Assembly: GCA_002083645.1 (NCBI GenBank)
Contig: MSXQ01000013.1
Span: 10,769-74,768, forward strand
From: Proteobacteria bacterium ST_bin13
GTDB taxonomy: Bacteria > Pseudomonadota > Alphaproteobacteria > Sphingomonadales > Sphingomonadaceae
Reading direction: 5' to 3'
DNA: 64,000 nt
A model generated the notes under the pieces. It had not been told where the DNA came from and did no database searches. It saw nothing but the letters and a program-made list of their open reading frames with translations. Made by a program: the position numbers and the translations under genes. This document shows, one piece after another, positions 1-44,327 of this stretch (positions are counted from its first letter, which is position 1; each line of letters opens with the position of its first letter).

Positions 1-1129
1 TACCGCGAATTCGACGAGCCCCAAGCTCGCCCGCCAGATCGTGCAGAAGCTGATCGACATCTTCGTCGAGGAAAATCTCGCCGGCAATCGCGATGAGACG
101 AGCCAGACACTCCAGTTCCTCGATGGCCAGCTTGCCCAGCGCCAGAAGCAATTGCAGGACAGCGAGGCCAAGCGCGCCGATTTCCAGAACCGCTATCTGG
201 GCTCACTGCCGGGCACTGGCACGCTGAACGATCGGATCGGCAACGCCCGCAGCCAGATGGCGCAGGTCGATAGCGATCTTGCCGCCGCGCAAAGCGGGTT
301 GGCCGCGCTGACGGGTCAGATGGCAGGCGTCCCGGCGAGCATCGCTGGCGTCGGCGGCGGGATCGCTGGCCCGGCGCGCGCGCGGGTCAACGCCATCCAG
401 GGCCAGCTTGCCGAGGCGCGTGGTCGTGGCTTCACTGAATCGCACCCTGATGTCGTCGCGCTCAAAAGTCAGCTCGCTCAGGCGCAAGGGGCAGCGCGCG
501 CTGAACCCTTGGGCACAGCAGCGGCAAGCGCCAACAATCCGGCCTATCTCTCGCTTCAGTCGCTCCGCGCCGACAAACAGGCACAGGTCGCCGCGCTCAC
601 CGCGCGCAAAGGCCAGCTCCAAAATGATCTCGATCAGCTTCAGGCCAAGCTGAACGGTGATCCCGCTGTTGCCGCCGAACAGGCGCAGCTCGAGCGCGAC
701 TATCAAGTGCTCAAGGATCAATATGACAAGCTGCTTGGCGACCGCGAGGACATCAAGCTGCGTGGCCAGGTCCAGAACCAGACGGACGCGATCAAATTCA
801 GCGTGATCGACCCGCCCACTGCACCACGTGCACCAACCGCCCCCAATCGGCCGCTGTTGCTGACGGGTGTGTTGATGGCCGGGATCTTCGCCGGCATTGG
901 TGCGGCGTTCGCCTTTGGCCATTTGCGGGCCACCTTCGCGACGGCAAGTCGACTTGAGCGCGCAACGGGCATGCCCGTCATCGGGTCGATCGGCGAGATG
1001 GTGACTGATGCCCAGCGGGCAATGCGGGCCAAGCGACTGACCTATTTTGCCGGCGGGGCCGGGGGGCTGGGCGTTGCCTATATCGCGCTGATCGGCGTTG
1101 AATTCTTGCAGCGGGGGCTGGCAGCATGA
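1..1129 (+). CDS. Polysaccharide chain-length determinant (Wzz/GumC/EpsF-like, PEP-CTERM locus type), 5' end cut by window edge
   Basis: Frame is open from the window edge (frame of position 2). Long Q/A/L-rich coiled-coil region is followed by a C-terminal TM segment LLLTGVLMAGIFAGIGAAFAF. Stop overlaps the next start (ATGA at 1126-1129). Sits at the head of the XrtA locus. Confidence 0.75.
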   Translation, partial: TANSTSPKLARQIVQKLIDIFVEENLAGNRDETSQTLQFLDGQLAQRQKQLQDSEAKRADFQNRYLGSLPGTGTLNDRIGNARSQMAQVDSDLAAAQSGLAALTGQMAGVPASIAGVGGGIAGPARARVNAIQGQLAEARGRGFTESHPDVVALKSQLAQAQGAARAEPLGTAAASANNPAYLSLQSLRADKQAQVAALTARKGQLQNDLDQLQAKLNGDPAVAAEQAQLERDYQVLKDQYDKLLGDREDIKLRGQVQNQTDAIKFSVIDPPTAPRAPTAPNRPLLLTGVLMAGIFAGIGAAFAFGHLRATFATASRLERATGMPVIGSIGEMVTDAQRAMRAKRLTYFAGGAGGLGVAYIALIGVEFLQRGLAA

Positions 1130-6827: not shown

Positions 6828-8041
6828 TGGGCGATATTCTGTTCCTGACTCACCGGATCCCCTATCCGCCCGATCGCGGCGACAAGATCCGTGGCTTCAA
6901 TATCCTGAAATATCTCTCGGCTCGCCGTCGGGTGCATGTCATCGCTTTTGCCGACGAAACGCGCGATCTGCGGCGCAAGAATGAGCTTGCCGCCTATACG
7001 GGCAACCGTTCGATCATCTGGCGATCAAAGCCGCGCTGGCTGGCAGCAGTGCAGGCGCTCGCCTTTCGCCGACCGGTTTCGCTCACAGCCTTCGAAAACG
7101 GGCCACTACAGGAAGCCGTCGACAACATTTTGGCGCGTCATTCGATTGATTTGATCTACGTTTTTTCGAGCCAAATGGCGCAATATCTGCCGGCCAAGCC
7201 GCGGCAAAAGGTGATCATGGATTTTGTCGACATGGATTCGGCCAAATTCGATGCCTATGCCAAGACGTCTTCTGGCCTGACAGCTTGGATGATGCAGCGT
7301 GAGGCCCAATTGCTGTTCGCGCATGAAAAGGCGGTGGCCGCCCGTGTCGATGCCAGCCTGTTCGTTAGCGAAGCCGAAGCCGAGCTGTTCCGCGAACGCA
7401 CTGGCGCAAAGCGGGTTTATGCGGTCGAAAACGGCATCGATACCGATTATTTCAACCCCGCCGCGAGCTTTAAGCGGATCGAGACGACTGGCGCGCTGAT
7501 CGTGTTCACCGGGCAAATGGATTACCGCCCCAATATTGAAGCGGTAACCTGGTTCGTCGAGGCCATCATGCCGCATATCCGGGTGGTCCACCCCCAGGCT
7601 AGGTTCGCCATTGTCGGTCGCAACCCGACCGATGCAGTCAAAGCGCTGGCACGGCAGCCGGGGGTGATTGTAACGGGGGAAGTCGCCGATGTGCGCGGCT
7701 GGATCGCCGCGTCTGCCGTTGTTGTCGCCCCACTCAAGCTTGCCCGCGGCGTTCAGAACAAAGTGCTTGAGGCGATGGCGATGGCCCGGCCAGTGGTCGC
7801 TTCGACGGCGGCGGCCGAAGGAATCGACCATGGCGACACGATCCATGTCGGCGCCACGGTTGGCGAGATTGCCGAGGCGGTGACCCGGCTAATGTCCGAT
7901 CCCGCTAAGGCAAATGCGCTTGGCCTGACGGCGCGCGAGCAAGTGATTGCGCGTTATGGCTGGGACGCGCGGCTGGCCGTGCTCGATTCGATCCTTGGCC
8001 TGCCCAAAAAGGCGCCGCCGATGCGCCGGTCAGCGGCGTGA
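6827..8041 (+). CDS. GT4-family sugar transferase, PEP-CTERM/EpsH1 system-associated
   Basis: N-terminus MGDILFLTHRIPYPPDRGDKIRGFN and C-terminal NKVLEAMAMARPVV (E-x7-E region). ATG at 6827 overlaps the upstream TGA; the track start at 6761 is rejected. Confidence 0.8.
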   Translation: MGDILFLTHRIPYPPDRGDKIRGFNILKYLSARRRVHVIAFADETRDLRRKNELAAYTGNRSIIWRSKPRWLAAVQALAFRRPVSLTAFENGPLQEAVDNILARHSIDLIYVFSSQMAQYLPAKPRQKVIMDFVDMDSAKFDAYAKTSSGLTAWMMQREAQLLFAHEKAVAARVDASLFVSEAEAELFRERTGAKRVYAVENGIDTDYFNPAASFKRIETTGALIVFTGQMDYRPNIEAVTWFVEAIMPHIRVVHPQARFAIVGRNPTDAVKALARQPGVIVTGEVADVRGWIAASAVVVAPLKLARGVQNKVLEAMAMARPVVASTAAAEGIDHGDTIHVGATVGEIAEAVTRLMSDPAKANALGLTAREQVIARYGWDARLAVLDSILGLPKKAPPMRRSAA

Positions 8042-9579
8042 CGATCGCCTTTCCGGCCGCTGATTTTCAGACGGGCGGCGGGGAGGGGACGGCAGCCACC
8101 TGGCGCCGCCAGGGCGCTTTGCTGGGCGGTGTTGCGCTCATCCTGCTGATCCTATTCGGCCATGACAGCGCCGATCTGGCGCGTTTGTGGTGGACCAGCA
8201 CCACCTTTGGCCATTGCCTTTTCATTGGCCCCGTGATCGGCTGGCTGGTCTGGCAGCGCCGCCATGATCTCGCTCAGCTGACGCCCATAGGATGGTGGCC
8301 GGGCCTGGCGATCATCATGGTTGGCGGGGCTGGCTGGCTGGTCGGCGATGCTGCAAGCGTCGCGCTGGCGCGGCATATCGGTCTGGTCATGATGCTGCAG
8401 GGCGCGGTGGTAAGCCTGCTCGGCCCGCAGGTCGCGCGCGGGCTGTTGTTTCCGCTCGCTTATGCTTTTTTTCTGGTGCCCTTTGGGGAGTCGCTCGAAA
8501 CGCCATTGCAGAGCGTAACGGTGGCGATGGTCATGCCGATGTTGCATGCAGTTGGCGTGCCCGCGAGCGTTGATGGCGTGCTGATCACGATCCCCAATGG
8601 CTATTTCGAGGTCGCAGAGGCCTGTTCGGGCGCGAAATTCGTGATTGCCATGATCGCCTATGGCACGCTGGTGGCCAATGTCGCCTTTGTCAGCTGGCCG
8701 CGCCGGATTGCCTTCATGGTGATGGCGCTGGTCGTGCCGGTGATCGCCAATGGTTTCCGTGCCTTCGGGACGATCTACGCCGCGCACCTCACCTCGGTGG
8801 AGGCAGCGACGGGGTTTGATCACATCATTTATGGGTGGGTTTTTTTCGGGCTGGTGATGGCGGCGGTGATTGCGATCGGTTGGAAATGGTTCGACCGCGA
8901 TCCGGATGCGCCTTGGTTTGACGTCGCTGCGCTTCGCCCCACGCCGCACTGGCGGATCGATGGATTGATCACTGCCGCAATGGCGCTGACGATCGCGTCC
9001 GGCTTTGCTGGCTGGGCCGGAACGCTATCAGCCCAGGCGACGCGATTGCCTGACAGGATCATGTTACCGACCATCGCTGGCTGGAGCCCGGCGGGCCCCA
9101 ATCTTAGAGCGCCCTGGTCGCCCTATTATCCGGGTGCTGATCATTTTCTGGCTGGCCGTTTCGCCGATCAAGGCGGGCAAACGGCTGACTTCACAATCGC
9201 CCTGTTCGGCAGCCAGCATGAGGGCAAGGAGCTGATCTCCTTCGGCACTGGCGCATTGCGTGAGGATGATCGCTGGGTGCGGATCGAGGATTTGCCGGAC
9301 ATTGCGGGTGGTTCAGCGATGCGGATCACCGCGCCGGGCCATGTCGAGCGGATTGTCGTCACCTGGTATCGGATCGGCGGGAAGCTGACAGCGAGCCCCC
9401 GTGTCGTGAAACTGGAGACGCTGAAGGCCAAGCTGCTGGGTGGATCGCCCGTGGGCGTGGCGCTGCATGTATCGGTACAGGTTGAGCCGGGTGTGGACGC
9501 CCGGGCGACGATTGCGCGCTTCATCCAGGCCGCAGGGCCGCTTGACCGGCTGGCCGACCGGGTGGCAAGCGGCCAATAG
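8038..9579 (+). CDS. xrtA: Exosortase A (XrtA) with an apparently fused C-terminal EpsI-like domain
   Basis: Polytopic N-terminal half carries the exosortase catalytic-type motifs EACSGAKF, ANGFRAF and DHIIYGWVFF. A soluble C-terminal half of about 200 aa follows, 513 aa in total. GTGA overlap upstream. Confidence 0.85.
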   Translation: MTIAFPAADFQTGGGEGTAATWRRQGALLGGVALILLILFGHDSADLARLWWTSTTFGHCLFIGPVIGWLVWQRRHDLAQLTPIGWWPGLAIIMVGGAGWLVGDAASVALARHIGLVMMLQGAVVSLLGPQVARGLLFPLAYAFFLVPFGESLETPLQSVTVAMVMPMLHAVGVPASVDGVLITIPNGYFEVAEACSGAKFVIAMIAYGTLVANVAFVSWPRRIAFMVMALVVPVIANGFRAFGTIYAAHLTSVEAATGFDHIIYGWVFFGLVMAAVIAIGWKWFDRDPDAPWFDVAALRPTPHWRIDGLITAAMALTIASGFAGWAGTLSAQATRLPDRIMLPTIAGWSPAGPNLRAPWSPYYPGADHFLAGRFADQGGQTADFTIALFGSQHEGKELISFGTGALREDDRWVRIEDLPDIAGGSAMRITAPGHVERIVVTWYRIGGKLTASPRVVKLETLKAKLLGGSPVGVALHVSVQVEPGVDARATIARFIQAAGPLDRLADRVASGQ

Positions 9580-20112: not shown

Positions 20113-20215
20113 CGCCGCGGGAGTCGGGCGGGCGTAGCCGTCGCCAACCTGGTCAGGGCCGGAAGGCAGCAGCCACAACGATTTCGCTGCGGGTCGTCCC
20201 GGCTCCCACCGCGCA
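20113..20215 (+). ncRNA. ffs: Signal recognition particle RNA (4.5S, small bacterial SRP RNA)
   Basis: Conserved domain IV motif CUGGUCAGGGCCGGAAGGCAGCAGCCA with a GGAA tetraloop. 5' GGGAGUCGGG pairs with 3' CCCGGCUCCC. The position upstream of dnaX is typical. Ends are approximate. Confidence 0.8.
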
Positions 20216-33310: not shown

Positions 33311-33696
<386 letters not shown>

Positions 33697-33738
33697 TTTT
33701 CTGCAACGGTTGTGTCGGCTCCGCCGGTGCTTCGCTCG

Positions 33739-35975: not shown

Positions 35976-36176
35976 TGGACTCCCACGTCATCAAGGATCG
36001 GTGATCATTGCCTAAGACCAGCCATTTCTATGTAGGCGCTTGAGCATCGGCGGAACCCCTGAAAATGTGTTGAATCATTGCTGGATTGCCACCAATTTTA
36101 TCCCGACAGCGGTGCTGCGACCGGAAGGTACGGACACTGATGGCAATTCCCGTGATTGTTGCGTAAGGGCAAAACC

Positions 36177-36713
36177 ATGGCACGCAGCACTCGATCCGTT
36201 GACTGGGGTTTCCCGCGCTGGCGCGGCTATGGCAGTGGCCGTGAGGCGACGCAGGTGCGGCTATGCGATCGTCACGGCTGTGCTGAGCCCGGCAATTGCC
36301 CGGCGCCAAAATCGCCCAACAGCCCGGAACGCTGGTATTTCTGCCAGGTCCATGCCGGCGAATATAATCGTGGCTGGAATTATTTCGAAGGATTGACCGC
36401 TGAGGAAGCGGCGGCCCGCGAGGCCGAGGAAAATCGCGACACCTCTGGCTACACCGAATCGCGCCATAATAGCTGGGCAGGGCCGGGCGATGGGTCGCGG
36501 TCGCGGGACGAAATGAGCGCGCTCGACTTGTTTGAGCTTGAACCCGATGCTGATTTCGAAGCCGTGCGAGTCGCCTGGCGCAAGATGGCCAAGGCCAATC
36601 ACCCTGATGTTCGCCCTGGCGACAAGGACGCCGCCACCCGCTTCCAGGCGATCCAGGCGGCTTATGACGTGCTGCGTGTGGCTGAAGAGAATCGGCAATG
36701 GCGGCCTGAGTGA
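36177..36713 (+). CDS. J-domain protein with Cys/His-rich N-terminal region
   Basis: C-terminal J domain (FEAVRVAWRKMAKANHPDVRPGD ... FQAIQAAYDVL). N-terminal part carries CDRHGC...C...FCQVH. Confidence 0.75.
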   Translation: MARSTRSVDWGFPRWRGYGSGREATQVRLCDRHGCAEPGNCPAPKSPNSPERWYFCQVHAGEYNRGWNYFEGLTAEEAAAREAEENRDTSGYTESRHNSWAGPGDGSRSRDEMSALDLFELEPDADFEAVRVAWRKMAKANHPDVRPGDKDAATRFQAIQAAYDVLRVAEENRQWRPE

Positions 36714-37012
36714 AGGCCCTGATCAAGGCTGATTGGGAAAATGCCGTCCTGATTTGCGCGAAATGTTCAAAGCGGCTGGGCGGTGGCTTTGGCCGCAATG
36801 GCAAGAAATCACTGGCAAAGGCGCTGCGCAAACAGCTGGGAATCAAACGCTTCCGCAAGGCGCCGGTCGGCATTGTCGAGGTGAAATGCCTGGGGGTTTG
36901 TCCGCGCGGGGCAGTGACGGTCGTTGATGCAAGTCAGCCGGGTGAATGGCGGCTCGTGCGACCAGGGGCCGATCTCGACGCATTGGCGCGCGAGATCGGC
37001 CTTCGTGCCTAG
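36710..37012 (+). CDS. Small Cys-x2-Cys / Cys-x3-Cys protein (possible thioredoxin-like [2Fe-2S] ferredoxin)
   Basis: 100 aa with CAKCSK ... CLGVCPRG. GTGA overlap with the J-domain gene. Confidence 0.45.
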   Translation: MKALIKADWENAVLICAKCSKRLGGGFGRNGKKSLAKALRKQLGIKRFRKAPVGIVEVKCLGVCPRGAVTVVDASQPGEWRLVRPGADLDALAREIGLRA

Positions 37013-38889: not shown

Positions 38890-39294
38890 TCATGTGTAGC
38901 GCGCCGCGGTTTCGCGGATCAGCGCAATCATGTTGGGGATGCCCTGCGTCCGGTTTGAACTGAGCTGATTCTTGAGATCGAACGGGGCAAGGCACGCTTC
39001 GATATCGGTCGCAGCGATGGCAGCGGGCAGTTGATCCTGGACCGTCAGCAGCACCAGCGCGATGATGCCTTTAGTGATGGCGGCATTGCTGTCAGCCAGA
39101 AAATGCAGCGCGCCATCCTCGCGTCGGGTGGGATAGACCCAGACCGAGGCCGAACACCCGCGGACCAAGGTTGTATCGGCCTTCAGCGCATCGGGCATTG
39201 GTTCCAAGGCGCGGCCGAGATCGATCAACAGGCGGTAACGATCATCGGCATCAAGGAAATCATATTCGTCGTGAATGTCGGACAGGCTGGTCAT
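38890..39294 (-). CDS. sufE: SufE-like cysteine desulfuration protein
   Basis: VRGCSASVWV active-site Cys loop, 134 aa from MTSLSDIH. Confidence 0.85.
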   Translation of the reverse strand: MTSLSDIHDEYDFLDADDRYRLLIDLGRALEPMPDALKADTTLVRGCSASVWVYPTRREDGALHFLADSNAAITKGIIALVLLTVQDQLPAAIAATDIEACLAPFDLKNQLSSNRTQGIPNMIALIRETAARYT

Positions 39295-39319
39295 GCTTGT
39301 CCCGCTAGCGGGATGGACC

Positions 39320-39565
39320 TTAGAGGTCCACCCCGGCAGCAATGGCTTCCAACTTGCGGATTCGTTCCTTCAAATCGGCAATCTCGATCCGGGCGCTGGC
39401 GCTGGCGCCTTGCATTGCCGGCATTGGTTCGGGATGGGTGCGGACCAGTTCTTGCTGCTTGAGCGAGAGCCAGCCGCGCCAGCCAGCCAAGCCGGCAAAG
39501 GTTACCATGGCCAGCCCGGCCAGGCTCGCAATGGCCAGCGTCACGGATAATGTGGGGTCGATCAT
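39320..39565 (-). CDS. Psp-tail mini-protein 1 (81 aa: one TM helix plus a PspB-like zipper)
   Basis: GGAGGA SD lies 7 nt before the ATG. TM LSVTLAIASLAGLAMVTFAGLAGW, C-terminal IADLKERIRKLEAIAAGVDL. Confidence 0.65.
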   Translation of the reverse strand: MIDPTLSVTLAIASLAGLAMVTFAGLAGWRGWLSLKQQELVRTHPEPMPAMQGASASARIEIADLKERIRKLEAIAAGVDL

Positions 39566-39576
39566 CACAGATCCTC

Positions 39577-39819
39577 CTAGCGAATGTCGCGCAGCTTCTC
39601 GATCTCCAGATCGAGGCGGATGGCGTTGGTGTCGTCAGTCGCGAGCCGTTCGAGCACCGCGATCCGGTCTTTGAGAGCCTGAACATCATCGCGCAGGCGG
39701 CGCGCATCGGGGTCCCTGGCAAGCGATGGGCTGGCGCCCTGCGCTTCGTAGCGGGCACGCAACACGCGGGCACCGGCCACGATAAGGACCATCAAAACAA
39801 CGGCTGACCAAAAACTCAT
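39577..39819 (-). CDS. Psp-tail mini-protein 2 (80 aa: one TM helix plus a PspC-tail-like motif)
   Basis: GGAG lies 8 nt before the ATG at 39819 (alternative GTG at 39828). TM FWSAVVLMVLIVAGARVL, tail LKDRIAVLERLATDDTNAIRLDLEIEKLRDIR. Confidence 0.7.
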   Translation of the reverse strand: MSFWSAVVLMVLIVAGARVLRARYEAQGASPSLARDPDARRLRDDVQALKDRIAVLERLATDDTNAIRLDLEIEKLRDIR

Positions 39820-39848
39820 CGAATTCACTCCAAGCTATATTTTCTTTT

Positions 39849-40118
39849 TTAATTCAACGGCTTCGAATCACGCAGCTTTTCGATCTCGTCCGCGATATCG
39901 ATGCCTCGATCGGTGGTGATCCGTTCCAGAACGCGCACCCGCTGTTCGAGTCGCTCGGTTTGCGCGGCATATTGTGCCGCTTTCTCCGCGATCATGCTGG
40001 CTTCAGTTTCGATCTGCTTTTCACGAAGGCGCAGCCAGGGTTGGACGATCTGCTTGGCGACAATTGCAACGATTGGGATCAGCAGGGCGAAGAGGTAAAC
40101 AAGAATGCCGTAGTTCAT
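39849..40118 (-). CDS. Psp-tail mini-protein 3 (89 aa)
   Basis: GAGGA SD. TM GILVYLFALLIPIVAIVAKQIV, tail LEQRVRVLERITTDRGIDIADEIEKLRDSKPLN. The track ORF 39849..40331 has an unsupported N-terminal extension. Confidence 0.7.
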   Translation of the reverse strand: MNYGILVYLFALLIPIVAIVAKQIVQPWLRLREKQIETEASMIAEKAAQYAAQTERLEQRVRVLERITTDRGIDIADEIEKLRDSKPLN

Positions 40119-40128
40119 GATGCGATCC

Positions 40129-40449
40129 TCAATTCGGCTTGATGCGCAATGCTTCAATCTCTGCGTGGAGACTGTGTGAACCGTCGGTGACGATCCGCTC
40201 CACATTGGCGAGCCGATCCTTGATTGATCCAAGTTCCGCGCGCAGCTGGGCGTTTTCCTGGCTAAGGAGCTTGATCCGCTCGACCGATTCCTGATCGCTC
40301 TTGGGGTAAAGTGCCTGCCCCCAATGACCATCGAGCGGGTAACCGTTCTTGATCCGCAGCCACGTGGTGAACATCCAGCCGACCGTGCCGATCATCGTGA
40401 CGGTAACGATCAGTGGCGCGACGCGCATAAGCGTTTCGATCGAGTCCAT
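40129..40449 (-). CDS. Psp-tail mini-protein 4 (106 aa)
   Basis: GGGGAGG SD. TM VAPLIVTVTMIGTVGWMFTTWL followed by RIKNGYPLD, tail IKDRLANVERIVTDGSHSLHAEIEALRIKPN. Confidence 0.7.
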   Translation of the reverse strand: MDSIETLMRVAPLIVTVTMIGTVGWMFTTWLRIKNGYPLDGHWGQALYPKSDQESVERIKLLSQENAQLRAELGSIKDRLANVERIVTDGSHSLHAEIEALRIKPN

Positions 40450-40463
40450 GTTTCAGCCTCCCC

Positions 40464-40757
40464 TTAGCGTAGCGCGTCAATGTCGCGGGCAACCCGCTCG
40501 GCGGGATCGGTGGCGATCCGCTCGAGCACGGCGATCCGCTCTTCCAGTCGGCCGATCTGCCCGGTCAGACGCTGGTTCTCGTTTGAGAGCAGGTTGATGG
40601 CGCGCTCAGCTTCGGGATCATCCAGGTCGCGGATCACTTTGCCGCCGAATTCACTATCCAGGGGATAGCCGTGTTTTGCCCGGATCCAGGTCGTGATGAC
40701 CCAGCCCACCGTCGACATCAGCACGATGACGACGATGAATGTTTGACCATTACTCAT
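40464..40757 (-). CDS. Psp-tail mini-protein 5 (97 aa)
   Basis: GGGAGGGAG SD. TM FIVVIVLMSTVGWVITTWI followed by RAKHGYPLD, tail LEERIAVLERIATDPAERVARDIDALR. Confidence 0.7.
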   Translation of the reverse strand: MSNGQTFIVVIVLMSTVGWVITTWIRAKHGYPLDSEFGGKVIRDLDDPEAERAINLLSNENQRLTGQIGRLEERIAVLERIATDPAERVARDIDALR

Positions 40758-41172: not shown

Positions 41173-41445
41173 TCAATTCCTCCTGGTGATGTCGTAATCG
41201 AGGGCTTCGGGCGTGCTGTTGCTGCCCAGTTTCCACTCGGGGTGATCGGCGGCGATGATGCGTTCGATCGTGTTGAGCCGGTCTTCGAGACGACGGGCCG
41301 TGTAATGCAGCTCGTCGAGCAGCTTTTCGTCCTCACCCGTCAGCGACGAGGTTTTCTTCCACTGCGTGATATAATGAAGCACCAGCCAGGGCAGCCCGAT
41401 GAACAGGATGCTGAGGACGATGGCGATCGTCATGAATTCTTCCAT
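41173..41445 (-). CDS. pspB: Phage shock protein B
   Basis: TM IAIVLSILFIGLPWLVLHYI then LEDRLNTIERIIAADHPEW, resembling E. coli PspB as I recall it. Alternative start at 41433. Confidence 0.8.
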   Translation of the reverse strand: MEEFMTIAIVLSILFIGLPWLVLHYITQWKKTSSLTGEDEKLLDELHYTARRLEDRLNTIERIIAADHPEWKLGSNSTPEALDYDITRRN

Positions 41446-41446
41446 C

Positions 41447-42115
41447 TCAGTTTGCCTTGCCGATACGGGCCTTCAGCGCGGCAAGATCGGCATCGACCTT
41501 CTCGCTTGACCGCAGCTCGGCAATTTCTTCCTCAAGCGTTTTGGGCGGTGCGCCCAGGCTGAGCGCATCGGCGCGGCCTTCGGCGAAATCGACACGACGC
41601 TCCATGACCTCGAAGCGCGAAAACGCGTCCTGCACCTTGGGGCCGGCATAAGCCTCGCGCATCTTCACCCGGTTATGCGCGGATTCGAGCCGCGTCGTGA
41701 TCGAGTTCTGGCGGGTGCGGGCCTCGCGCAGCTTGTTCTGCAGCTTGGTGATGTCTTCTTCGGCACTGCGCAACGTATCGTCGAGCACGCCGATTTCGGC
41801 ACCGAGCTGATCAGCCATGTCGACCGCCTTCTGGCGTTCCACCAGGGCTGCCTTGGCCAGGTCTTCGCGATCCTTCGACAGCGCCAGTTCGGCCTTTTCG
41901 GTCCAGCTGTCCTGCAGCTTTTCCAGCTTGGCGATGTGCCGACGCATTTCCTTTTGATCCGCAATCGTGCGCGCAGCGGACGCGCGAACCTCGACCAGCG
42001 TTTCCTCCATTTCGAGGATGATCATGCGGATCATCTTGGCCGGGTCTTCAGCCTTGTCGAGCAAGTCGGTGACGTTGGCGGCAATGATGTCTCGGGTTCG
42101 CGAAAAAATGCCCAT
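41447..42115 (-). CDS. pspA: Phage shock protein A (PspA/IM30 family)
   Basis: MGIFSRTRDIIAANVTDLLDKAEDPAKMIRMIILEMEE, 222 aa coiled coil. AGGAG SD. Confidence 0.92.
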   Translation of the reverse strand: MGIFSRTRDIIAANVTDLLDKAEDPAKMIRMIILEMEETLVEVRASAARTIADQKEMRRHIAKLEKLQDSWTEKAELALSKDREDLAKAALVERQKAVDMADQLGAEIGVLDDTLRSAEEDITKLQNKLREARTRQNSITTRLESAHNRVKMREAYAGPKVQDAFSRFEVMERRVDFAEGRADALSLGAPPKTLEEEIAELRSSEKVDADLAALKARIGKAN

Positions 42116-42212: not shown

Positions 42213-42371
42213 TTAGGCGACGGGGACTTCGTTGATCAGGTGCGCTGTCTGGGCGGACTGAAGCGCGGCTGGCGCAATGGCGCCCATCACGCAGGTGGCG
42301 CTGAACAGCATCGCAAAGGCGATGGCGGTGATCGTGCGAACGGGGCTGGTTGCGTTGTAACCGGTATTCAT
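42213..42371 (-). CDS. 52-aa leader mini-protein of the psp operon (hydrophobic, not in ORF track)
   Basis: AGGAAG lies 7 nt before the ATG. Product is MNTGYNATSPVRTITAIAFAMLFSATCVMGAIAPAALQSAQTAHLINEVPVA. 42 of 52 codons end in G/C by my hand count. It lies downstream of the sigma-54 promoter. Confidence 0.45.
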   Translation of the reverse strand: MNTGYNATSPVRTITAIAFAMLFSATCVMGAIAPAALQSAQTAHLINEVPVA

Positions 42372-42431: not shown

Positions 42432-42448
42432 TGCAGGAACCGTGCCAA
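42432..42448 (-). promoter_or_regulatory. Sigma-54 (-24/-12) promoter of the psp operon
   Basis: Minus strand reads TTGGCACGGTTCCTGCA, against the consensus TGGCACG-N4-TTGCW (one mismatch). It sits in the divergent pspF-pspA spacer. Confidence 0.75.
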
Positions 42449-42547
42449 TTTTGAAAATGGCTGATTTGCGCCATTTATGAACCCAAGCTGTCAGATCTTG
42501 CCAATTTCACCTTGCCAAAGTTTGGGATTTTACGCCAAGTAATCGGT

Positions 42548-43594
42548 ATGGATCGCACAACCCAGGTCATCGGTCAGTCAGGCGTCTTCCTGGACGTGCT
42601 GGAGCGCGCCAGCCGGGCCGCCGCCCTTGATCGCCCCGTGTTGGTGATCGGCGAGCGCGGAACCGGCAAGGAACTGGTTGCCGAGCGCCTCCACCGCCTG
42701 AGTCCACGCTGGGACCAGCCGCTCGTCATCATGAACTGCGCTGCATTGCCTGAAACGCTGATCGAGGCGGAACTGTTCGGGCATGAGGCCGGCGCGTTTA
42801 CCGGCGCGACCAAGGCACGCGCTGGACGCTTCGAAGAAGCGCATGGCGGCACGTTATTTCTTGATGAGCTCGGCACATTGTCGATGGCGGCGCAGGACCG
42901 GTTGCTCCGCGCGGTGGAATATGGCGAGGTCACCCGCATCGGTTCATCGCGCCCGATCAGGGTGGACGTCAGGATTATCGGCGCGACCAATGAGCATTTG
43001 CCCGACAAGGTCGATCGACATCACTTCCGGGCCGATTTGCTCGATCGGCTGTCCTTCGAAGTGGTGACCCTGCCGCCGCTGCGCGCCCGCGCGGGGGATG
43101 TGATGGTGCTGGCGGAGCATTTCGGGCGACGTATGGCATCAGAATTGGGCTGGGCGGATTGGCCGGGCTTCACGCCAGCGGCGATGGAGACGCTGGTCAG
43201 CTATAGCTGGCCGGGCAATGTACGCGAATTGCGCAACGTTGTCGGCCGGGCGGTCTATCGTTGGGAACGCGATGGGCCGATTGATGAAATCCAGTTTGAT
43301 CCCTTTGCCTCGCCCTATGCGCCCGCCGCTGGCCCGCCGGGTGGAGCGCGTGCTAAATCTGATCCGGTCCCGATCAACATGTCGGCTGATACGCATCCCG
43401 ACGAGCCATTGGCGGTGTGTGACGAAGAGGGGCCGTCCGATTTCAAATCGCAGGTTTCGCGGTTTGAACGCGATTTGCTGTCCCGCGCGCTTGCCGAGCA
43501 TCGCTTCAATCAACGCGCAACCGCAGAGGCATTGGGGCTGAGTTATGACCAGCTTCGCCACGCCTTGCGGCGGCACGATCTGCTGCCCGCGTAA
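42548..43594 (+). CDS. pspF: Sigma-54-dependent activator PspF (AAA+ plus HTH, no receiver domain)
   Basis: GERGTGKE Walker A, GAFTGA loop (HEAGAFTGA), C-terminal HTH NQRATAEALGLSYDQLRHAL. Divergent from pspA. Confidence 0.88.
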   Translation: MDRTTQVIGQSGVFLDVLERASRAAALDRPVLVIGERGTGKELVAERLHRLSPRWDQPLVIMNCAALPETLIEAELFGHEAGAFTGATKARAGRFEEAHGGTLFLDELGTLSMAAQDRLLRAVEYGEVTRIGSSRPIRVDVRIIGATNEHLPDKVDRHHFRADLLDRLSFEVVTLPPLRARAGDVMVLAEHFGRRMASELGWADWPGFTPAAMETLVSYSWPGNVRELRNVVGRAVYRWERDGPIDEIQFDPFASPYAPAAGPPGGARAKSDPVPINMSADTHPDEPLAVCDEEGPSDFKSQVSRFERDLLSRALAEHRFNQRATAEALGLSYDQLRHALRRHDLLPA

Positions 43595-43706
43595 AATCCC
43601 AAGACGAATCGGTTGCGCAATGATCGCGGCGGACCCAATTGGGGCGTAACGGCGTTCCCAACGGTGAGCACGACGCGTGCATCACCACCCAACAGGAGAC
43701 TATCCA

Positions 43707-44327
43707 ATGGCTTTCGAATTGCCCGCACTGCCCTATGCCAAGGGCGCACTTGCCCCCGTGATGTCGGCCGAGACGTTCGATTTCCATCATGGCAAGCACC
43801 ACAAGGCGTATGTCGACAAGACCAACGGCATGCTGCTGCAGCACGGCCTGGAAAATGCGAAGCTTACCGACGTGATCAAGCACGCCAAGGACAAGGGCGA
43901 CAAGGGCCTGTTCAACAATTCGGCGCAGATCTGGAACCACACATTTTTCTGGCATTCGCTGACGCCAAATTATGCCGCGCCGACGGGCAAGCTGGCCGAG
44001 ATGATCGCCAGCGAGTTTGGCACGACCGAAGAACTGGTGAAGCAACTGGTCGCAGAATCGACCAACCACTTCGCGAGCGGCTGGGGCTGGCTGGTGCTCG
44101 ATGGCGGCAAGCTGAAGGTGACGTCGCTGCACGATGCCGACACGCCAGTCGTCTATGATGGCATGAAGCCCCTGCTGACGATCGACGTGTGGGAACACGC
44201 TTATTACATCGATTATCGCAATGCCCGGCCGGGGTATCTGGAAGCGGTGACGGGCAAGATTCTCAACTGGGAATTTGCCGCGCAGAACCTGGACGGTGCG
44301 GGCATTTCGCGCGCTGACCAGGGTTGA
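43707..44327 (+). CDS. sodB: Superoxide dismutase (Fe type)
   Basis: AFELPALPYA, FHHGKHH, AQIWNHTFFW and DVWEHAYY motifs. AGGAGA SD. Confidence 0.92.
   Translation: MAFELPALPYAKGALAPVMSAETFDFHHGKHHKAYVDKTNGMLLQHGLENAKLTDVIKHAKDKGDKGLFNNSAQIWNHTFFWHSLTPNYAAPTGKLAEMIASEFGTTEELVKQLVAESTNHFASGWGWLVLDGGKLKVTSLHDADTPVVYDGMKPLLTIDVWEHAYYIDYRNARPGYLEAVTGKILNWEFAAQNLDGAGISRADQG

Follow-up and report, generated by a model that had tools for sequence, protein, structure and literature searches.

The window analysed here, a stretch of 64,000 nucleotides of the contig MSXQ01000013.1 of Proteobacteria bacterium ST_bin13 (Sphingomonadales, Sphingomonadaceae), contains a phage shock protein (psp) locus in which pspA, pspB and pspC are followed by five small genes. 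These minus-strand open reading frames (ORFs) after pspC were designated S1–S5, and all coordinates are those of the whole stretch. Comparison of sequences gives good support to the view that S1–S5 represent a Sphingomonadales-wide tandem expansion of PspB-type bitopic inner-membrane proteins with a short periplasmic N-terminus. S1–S4 clearly belong, by sequence, to one paralogous family of divergent proteins of the PspB architecture, which share a terminal helix with the tail of the local PspC; S5 is probably a further, more divergent member of the same family. The array is an order-wide, conserved feature of variable copy number, which is un-annotated in public records.

The genes pspA, pspB and pspC of the window all exceed the curated Pfam and NCBIfam cutoffs. 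The original prediction, made from the letters of the stretch, had placed the five ORFs directly 3' of these genes on the same strand, with short gaps and their own ribosome-binding sites. This description of the locus is accurate, since the gaps, counted from pspC–S1 and then from S gene to S gene, are 33, 14, 10, 29 and 11 nucleotides (range 10–33), and a GGAG, GAGGA or AGGAGG motif is located 7–9 nucleotides 5' of the ATG of every gene from S1 to S5.

When one genome per species was scanned with S1, at least 595 genomes with a homologue were identified, and the loci of the best 80 were compared. All 80 genomes belong to the order Sphingomonadales, namely, to the genera Sphingomonas, Sphingobium, Sphingorhabdus, Sphingosinicella, Allosphingosinicella and Stakelama. 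The gene order pspA–pspB–pspC–S1–(S2)–(S3)–S4–S5 is present in 80/80 loci, so that the synteny survey across Sphingomonadales proposed with the original prediction found the array and its order kept, not lost; pspF is divergent from pspA in 70 related loci. The window shares 99% identity with the locus L001, which comes from a metagenome-assembled genome of Sphingomonadales (LNFI01000008.1). Occurrence of single genes was counted over the 72 loci of sufficient length, where S1 is present in 72/72 by selection; S2 was found in 52, S3 in 55, S4 in 68 and S5 in 71 of them, and the number of small genes 3' of pspC ranges from 3 to 7 per locus. When homologues are compared with the window-like copy, the median identity is 63% for S1, 64% for S2, 52% for S3, 45% for S4 and 65% for S5, with 54% for PspB and 72% for PspC. 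With medians of 45–65% compared with 54% for PspB, the S genes are thus under selection of the same strength as the canonical sensors.

Homologues of S1 form 3473 clusters at 90% identity, all annotated as 'hypothetical protein' and none with a Pfam domain; every named cluster originates from Sphingomonadales. An alignment of 27 diverse S1 members contains 37 invariant columns, among them the complete tail RLEER..V.ERI.TDPA.R..R.I..LR. For S5, at least 7998 homologue clusters were found, all 'hypothetical'. The array is included in the public gene calls of Sphingomonas koreensis, with products of 96, 105, 90, 42, 88 and 81 amino acids, and the S genes of Sphingomonas parapaucimobilis carry the RefSeq label 'hypothetical protein'. 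A search of a plasmid collection gave a single match, on an 880-kb replicon of Sphingomonas. S1–S5 are certainly real genes, and their conservation is far beyond chance.

Two variants of the array were observed in related loci. An ORF of about 42 amino acids (MLIGFFAVLGVIGAIGVTLSEMRDRPVRRAERLAR...) is located between S3 and S4 in 21/72 loci (L081:5536-5664 (+); L017, approximately 7940-8080). This ORF combines a membrane helix with a basic stretch, lacks the zipper tail, is absent from the window and corresponds to a gene call in S. koreensis. S1-like proteins of 130–212 amino acids are encoded within a psp operon (L083:6001-6582 (+); also P0131, P0146, P0165, P0213 and P0242) and have a long N-terminal extension of low complexity, presumably periplasmic, ahead of the membrane helix.

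The relationship of the S proteins to PspB and PspC was analysed by profile–profile comparison with hhalign, using alignments from the 80 loci and reversed-sequence controls. S1–S4 are linked among themselves at 97–99.8%, S4 being linked to S1–S3 at 98–99%. The tail of the local PspC is linked to S1–S4 at 82–95% with scores of 30–40 (reversed controls, 12–19), and PspB at 45–86% with scores of 24–36 (reversed controls, 13–15); a direct hhalign comparison of PspB with the PspC tail was not significant. Shuffle tests with hidden Markov models (HMMs) agree with these links: each of the S1–S4 HMMs outscores all 2000 shuffles on the window PspB, and the tail HMMs of S1–S3 do likewise on the window PspC. 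On residues 33–63 of Escherichia coli PspB, the S1–S4 tail HMM scores 19.2 bits, a value reached by 0/3000 shuffles.

Family-wide scans against 18,950 NCBIfam models (E ≤ 0.01) gave PspB and PspC as the leading recurrent families for S3 and S4. The PspB model TIGR02976 was matched by 37/57 orthologues of S3 and 28/60 of S4, and the PspC model TIGR02978 by 27/57 and 18/60, respectively. Among S2 orthologues, 42/45 matched TIGR02978 in its C-terminal half (positions 52–121) below the cutoff; PspB was not among the matches listed for S2, and the unrelated model Npun_F5560 was matched in 29/45. In the window, S3 matches TIGR02976 with E = 1e-4 and 22.5 bits over model positions 3–67 of 75, and S4 scores 15.2 bits, compared with a cutoff of 51.7; the best Pfam PspB score of the window S proteins is 15.9 bits, compared with a cutoff of 25.6. 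The N-terminal PspC domain, PF04024, which includes the K-W-L-G-V-C-A-G-I-A block, had no match in S1–S5, compared with 53.8 bits in the window PspC, which agrees with the earlier statement that this domain is absent from all five proteins. A cytoplasmic zipper helix homologous to that of PspB, and a zipper tail of the PspC type as judged against the local PspC, were detected in S1–S4 and not in S5.

A number of results weigh against this assignment. The curated PspB and PspC cutoffs of Pfam and NCBIfam were reached by no S protein of the window and by none of the orthologues. In the NCBIfam scan, S1 gave 0/27 matches to the PspB and 0/27 to the PspC models, and S5 gave 0/60 and 0/60; the S5 HMM was non-significant throughout in shuffle tests against PspB and PspC. 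On E. coli PspC, the S1–S4 tail HMM is weak, with 1.9 bits, reached by 20/3000 shuffles. Furthermore, unrelated coiled-coil repeat proteins of a eukaryote-like kind, which carry an LE+xxGDSADKH motif, are matched by the tail profile, so part of the tail signal is generic, of a helix-cap-helix or coiled-coil kind. The search with this profile covered 1.84 billion representatives and gave 2055 matches at E ≤ 1e-3, among which are S-like proteins, variants with an N-terminal extension, apparent fusions from gene calling and the eukaryote-like repeat proteins; canonical PspB and PspC are not in the best 150. The profile searches against PspB and PspC models that the original prediction called for gave sub-threshold PspB/PspC matches for S2–S4, no match for S1 and S5, and no score at a curated cutoff.

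Among the proteins retrieved with the S-tail profile are eukaryote-like sequences of 608–1776 amino acids (P0124, P0128, P0172, P0234 and P0239) with 6–14 repeats of the form ...ERxxYLEKxxGDSADKHxxEL..., matched with E of about 1e-12 to 1e-19. The resemblance of these long repeat proteins to the S tail is probably due to convergent helix-cap-helix repeats.

The claim that the tails are related to both PspB and PspC stands for S1–S4, given hhalign with reversed controls, the TIGR02976 and TIGR02978 matches and the shuffle tests, and finds nothing detectable in S5. For S5, similarity is confined to S4 (hhalign 88–90%), with a weak link to S1. The terminal [DE]-I-[DE]-x-L-R helix is missing in PspB as well as in S5. 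The description of the operon as encoding seven membrane proteins with the same tail is consequently overstated: the tails of S1–S4 are related to that of the local PspC, while S5 has no detectable PspB/PspC similarity and neither PspB nor S5 has the terminal helix.

All five S proteins contain a single hydrophobic helix near the N-terminus. Lysine and arginine are commoner on the C-terminal than on the N-terminal flank of this helix in 78–98% of the members of S1–S5 and in 92% of PspB. Since the positive charge lies on the C-terminal side of the hydrophobic helix, the positive-inside rule predicts an N-out/C-in membrane anchor with a cytoplasmic tail for S1–S5, that is, the PspB trait of one N-terminal membrane helix followed by a cytoplasmic C-terminal domain. 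The interpretation of 'SIG', a label in a published table (PMC11237479), as a cleaved signal peptide with a periplasmic tail was rejected, since positive charge is lacking in the N-terminal regions and is located after the hydrophobic segment. That each of the five proteins crosses the membrane once and has a helical tail, as first proposed, is in line with these features; the term 'tail-only', used for them at the same time, is misleading, as S1–S5 have the full predicted PspB architecture (N-out/C-in anchor and cytoplasmic helix) and S3 and S4 match the PspB model almost end to end.

An AlphaFold2 model of S1 from the 27-sequence alignment (mean predicted local distance difference test score, pLDDT, 78.5) has a helix at residues 3–29, a low-confidence linker at 30–47 and a long helix at 48–96, with pLDDT 86–92 over residues 51–80. 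Hydrophobic residues of the long helix follow heptad spacing of 3–4 (I54, L57, L64, I68, L71, I75, L78 and I81/A82), which makes a coiled coil or zipper a reasonable reading of it. The invariant Asn61 occupies a predicted core position, and V89, I93 and L96 are located after the T-D-P cap. When the PDB was searched by sequence with the S1 profile, generic coiled coils only were retrieved, at E > 0.1.

The juxtamembrane block TTW[IL]R[AI]K[HN]GYPLD, reported earlier for the proteins of 97 and 106 amino acids, was found in S1 and S2, and the shared tail motif described with it was likewise confirmed. In its extended form, GW..TTW[IL]R[AI]K[HN]GYP[LIV][ED].[EH][FW].G, it covers approximately residues 19–39 (40641-40703 and 40333-40392 (-) in the window) and is nearly invariant order-wide. 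Since conservation of the block equals that of the tail, a specific interface at the boundary of the inner leaflet is suggested.

The position of the S genes in a PspF/sigma-54-controlled operon, where PspB is also encoded, is indicated by synteny and by a conserved sigma-54 motif. The sequence TGGCA[CT]-N5-[TC]TGC[AT] is located about 300 nucleotides 5' of pspA in 45/69 loci; these 45 make up most of the 53 plus-strand matches to the motif in 988 kb of locus sequence. A consensus scan for sigma-70 promoters and intrinsic terminators detected nothing exceeding shuffles. Between the sigma-54 motif and pspA lies the ORF X, conserved in position and sequence pattern and found by tblastn at the same site in at least 17 loci. 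Its homologues (46–52 amino acids) share the recurring pattern ...T..A(I)A.T.V.S.T...GA.(A/G)PA and are annotated as genes of 46–48 amino acids in S. koreensis and S. parapaucimobilis; a Pfam search matched X to no family. X is probably the first gene of the operon.

Across related loci, median gaps inside the array are 11–43 nucleotides, and a ribosome-binding site precedes 80–99% of the S genes. For sufE, the next gene, the upstream gap is variable and a ribosome-binding site was found in 12% of loci. A stem-loop at 39303-39341 has a folding energy of -30.2 kcal/mol (z = -2.9; 0/200 shuffles equally stable), and the 70 nucleotides at the S5 stop have a median of -28.1 kcal/mol across loci, compared with -10 to -20 kcal/mol at internal junctions. 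The stem-loop is probably the 3' end of the transcript and, having no U-tract, may act as a Rho-independent-like terminator or as a 3'-end stabiliser. In the locus L081 of S. koreensis, a reverse-strand esterase gene is inserted between S5 and sufE, and in the locus L083 (Sphingomonadaceae) the array follows pspABC with neither sufE nor sod nearby. In Zymomonas mobilis, sufE was assigned to its own transcription unit (PMC10746277). Membership of sufE in the operon was rejected given its variable gap, the lack of a ribosome-binding site, the hairpin after S5, the L081 insertion, the absence from L083 and the Z. mobilis unit. The conserved sigma-54 promoter and the strong hairpin at the S5 stop argue for one PspF/sigma-54-controlled transcript, X–pspA–pspB–pspC–S1..S5, ending at the hairpin, with sufE separate; co-transcription is inferred here from the sequence. 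The assignment of S1–S5 to the psp operon is thus borne out by 80/80 synteny, short gaps, ribosome-binding sites, the sigma-54 motif and a hairpin that occurs only after S5.

Table 1. Features of the psp locus and the S array in the window.
Feature	Position	Strand	Evidence
pspF, sigma-54 enhancer-binding activator, divergent	42512..43594	+	Pfam Sigma54_activat 1.4e-60, plus AAA_lid_14, HTH_8
Sigma-54 promoter-like element TGGCACGGTTCCTGCA, 5' of X and pspA	42432..42447	-	motif
X, leader ORF of 52 amino acids, hydrophobic core	42213..42371	-	tblastn, position
pspA	41447..42115	-	PF04012 3.9e-40; TIGR02977 279.6 bits vs cutoff 242.95
pspB, canonical	41173..41445	-	PF06667 88.6 bits; TIGR02976 83.5 bits vs cutoff 51.7
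pspC, 126 amino acids	40791..41171	-	PF04024 53.8 bits; TIGR02978 121.9 bits vs cutoff 104
S1, 97 amino acids; predicted membrane helix, TTWIRAKHGYP block, putative zipper helix terminating LERIATDPAERVARDIDALR	40464..40757	-	
S2, 106 amino acids, S1 paralogue	40129..40449	-	hhalign S1–S2 99.8%
S3, 89 amino acids, most PspB-like paralogue	39849..40118	-	TIGR02976 match
S4, 80 amino acids from ATG (83 from upstream GTG), core paralogue	39577..39819	-	
S5, 81 amino acids from ATG (82 from GTG), probable divergent last member, invariant tail ARIEIADLKERIRKLEAIAAGVDL	39320..39565	-	
Stem-loop across the S5 stop codon	39303..39341	-	folding energy
sufE, next after S5	38890..39294	-	

The inner membrane of enterobacteria contains a complex of PspB and PspC. 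For the 'on' state, PMC5596341 gives PspC's C-terminal cytoplasmic domain as the PspA-binding part in Yersinia and E. coli. The leucine zipper of PspC is needed for interaction with PspA and for induction, and PspB associates with itself and binds PspC via membrane regions (PMC3068692). By analogy with these systems, the S proteins are most likely extra membrane-anchored modules, zipping with PspB and PspC and docking PspA. Membrane stress would release PspF, and the S proteins would be produced along with PspA. Their membrane helices and zippers would assemble into homo- and hetero-oligomers among themselves as well as with PspB and the PspC tail; the PspC-tail-like ends of S1–S4 would add membrane-anchored PspA-binding sites, as in PspC of Yersinia and E. 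coli. PspA would thereby be kept at the membrane, away from PspF, with a capacity rising with induction. The complete explanation, in which a PspB-type expansion within the psp operon is joined to this PspA-docking mechanism, is regarded as fairly probable. A bolder version, considered rather doubtful, is that in Sphingomonadales the PspB/PspC sensor has been turned into a combinatorial set of 5–9 zipper-bearing bitopic proteins forming mixed membrane platforms, in which the paralogue mix would sense different insults or set the docking number of PspA (a bacterial ESCRT-III).

The main rival explanation has the opposite sign: the S proteins would be PspB-like silencers or buffers, the helices of which bind the PspC tail, as uninduced PspB does, or each other, giving negative feedback that resets the response. 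The Yersinia precedent counts here against docking, as it would equally allow PspB-like domains to silence the response by binding to the PspC tail. Silencing would fit the match of S3 and S4 to the PspB model over its whole length, as well as the far better match of the S1–S4 tail HMM to E. coli PspB than to E. coli PspC; however, S1–S4 end, like the local PspC tail, in the [DE]-I-[DE]-x-L-R helix that is missing in PspB, and their hhalign scores are higher with the PspC tail than with PspB. Silencing of the PspC tail is on balance unlikely, and the two explanations considered below are less likely than it.

The location of the S genes in the effector part of the operon would also be expected of PspA-independent effectors, i.e., small co-induced membrane proteins, comparable in function to E. 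coli PspD or PspG, which would themselves target the bilayer or other membrane complexes. Tiny tail-less ORFs with a membrane helix co-occur with the array (X and the ORF of 42 amino acids, 21/72 loci), and the conserved TTWIRAKHGYP block of S1 and S2 hints at a function at the membrane interface. But sequence similarity to PspD is lacking (-1.1 bits), and in each S protein conservation is highest in the cytoplasmic helix that resembles PspB/PspC, rather than in the membrane segment, which makes an effector role improbable. It is also conceivable that the resemblance to PspB and PspC is that of convergent coiled coils and that the S genes are unrelated psp neighbours, for instance a sufE-linked unit. 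All model matches being under the curated cutoffs, the matches of the tail profile to unrelated repeat proteins and the generic coiled coils from the PDB (E > 0.1) are compatible with convergence, while the reversed-sequence and shuffle controls lie well below the real comparisons, and PspB and PspC lead the recurrent families for S3 and S4 among 18,950 models, with PspC recurrent for S2. A link to sufE is opposed by the array following pspABC even where sufE is absent or separated, by the hairpin between S5 and sufE and by the separate sufE transcription unit of Z. mobilis (PMC10746277). Convergence is accordingly very improbable, more so than an effector role, and PspA docking by an expanded set of PspB-type proteins remains the preferred reading.

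The step mediated by PspB and PspC, by which membrane damage leads to release of PspF and recruitment of PspA, is the least understood in the phage shock response. A whole order keeps 3–7 extra PspB-type proteins under purifying selection beside a single PspA, PspB and PspC, and the S array can serve as a natural experiment on which parts of PspB and of the PspC tail matter, with zipper, terminal helix and juxtamembrane block as the parts in question. The combinatorial set, if true, would add to Psp signalling a modular layer not seen in the enterobacterial paradigm. Tractable sphingomonads with stress-induced psp are available (Zymomonas mobilis, Sphingomonas koreensis and Novosphingobium), and thousands of 'hypothetical' proteins in databases could be named PspB-like.

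A gene for Fe/Mn superoxide dismutase is located beyond pspF. The psp neighbourhood, 36156-37012 (+) and 43677-44327 (+), includes this superoxide dismutase gene adjoining pspF and, past sufE, genes for a J-domain protein and for an ORF of 100 amino acids, the orthologue of which is named (2Fe-2S) ferredoxin-domain protein in RefSeq. The superoxide dismutase, the J-domain protein and the ORF of 100 amino acids are also psp neighbours in S. koreensis, S. parapaucimobilis and Z. mobilis. Rfam and tRNA scans detected no RNA gene in the psp/S region; elsewhere in the window, class A RNase P RNA (33311-33697 (+), 312 bits) and the small signal recognition particle RNA (20118-20211 (+), 55.9 bits) were found.

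In comparison with known systems, the S proteins resemble PspB (PF06667/TIGR02976) in their size of 74–106 amino acids, the N-terminal membrane helix with the tail predicted inside, the position in the psp operon and a cytoplasmic heptad helix with R-x-[ED]-[ED]-R-[IL]-x-x-[LV]-E-x-I. They differ from it in scores of 11–22 bits compared with the cutoff of 51.7 and in their ends: PspB terminates in A-A-D-[HN]-P-[DE]-W, whereas S1–S4 have T-D-x(5-8)-[DE]-I-[DE]-x-L-R instead. S1 and S2 are further unlike PspB in the length of their linker, which is long, and in a juxtamembrane motif of their own. As for PspC, the tails of S1–S4 align with the last 30–37 residues of the local protein, including the terminal ...EIDSLR, but the S proteins lack PF04024 and the conserved N-terminal unit of amphipathic or membrane helices, and similarity of the S tails to the tail of E. 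coli PspC is marginal. PspD and PspG of the E. coli PspF regulon are small, like the S proteins, and are co-regulated with pspABC, as the S genes probably are, but PspD has no sequence similarity to the S tail HMM (-1.1 bits). In Z. mobilis, pspA, pspB and pspC (ZMO1063–1065) are raised by ethanol and furfural stress, and the hypothetical gene ZMO1062 occupies the position of X (PMC3495753).

The opinion in the original prediction that no Psp system with such a paralogue array had been described does not hold. The array is not new as a kind, since Ravi et al. (2024, mSystems; PMC11237479) reported 'PspB duplicates' in a psp operon, in one sentence and one table row, with Erythrobacter litoralis AOL22920.1 as an example; the publication gives no family definition, distribution or function, and a literature search found no functional study of the S array. 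The window conforms to a pspFABC operon with PspB duplicates, as 4/5 of its small genes after pspC are independently PspB-like and pspF is divergent. In the same publication, 4/5 small genes are tagged 'SIG+PspB', whereas the charge distribution found here indicates an uncleaved N-out/C-in anchor instead; by the table, X corresponds to 'X' of Table S3 (PMC11237479). The present analysis adds that S5 is not demonstrably PspB-like, and provides the orthologue groups S1–S5, a copy number of 3–7, an occurrence in at least 595 species, and the promoter and terminator features. The Erythrobacter litoralis row, from the same bacterial order, has the same gene order as the window: divergent pspF, X, pspA, pspB, pspC with a PspB-like tail, and five small genes to which a PspB domain is ascribed (PMC11237479).

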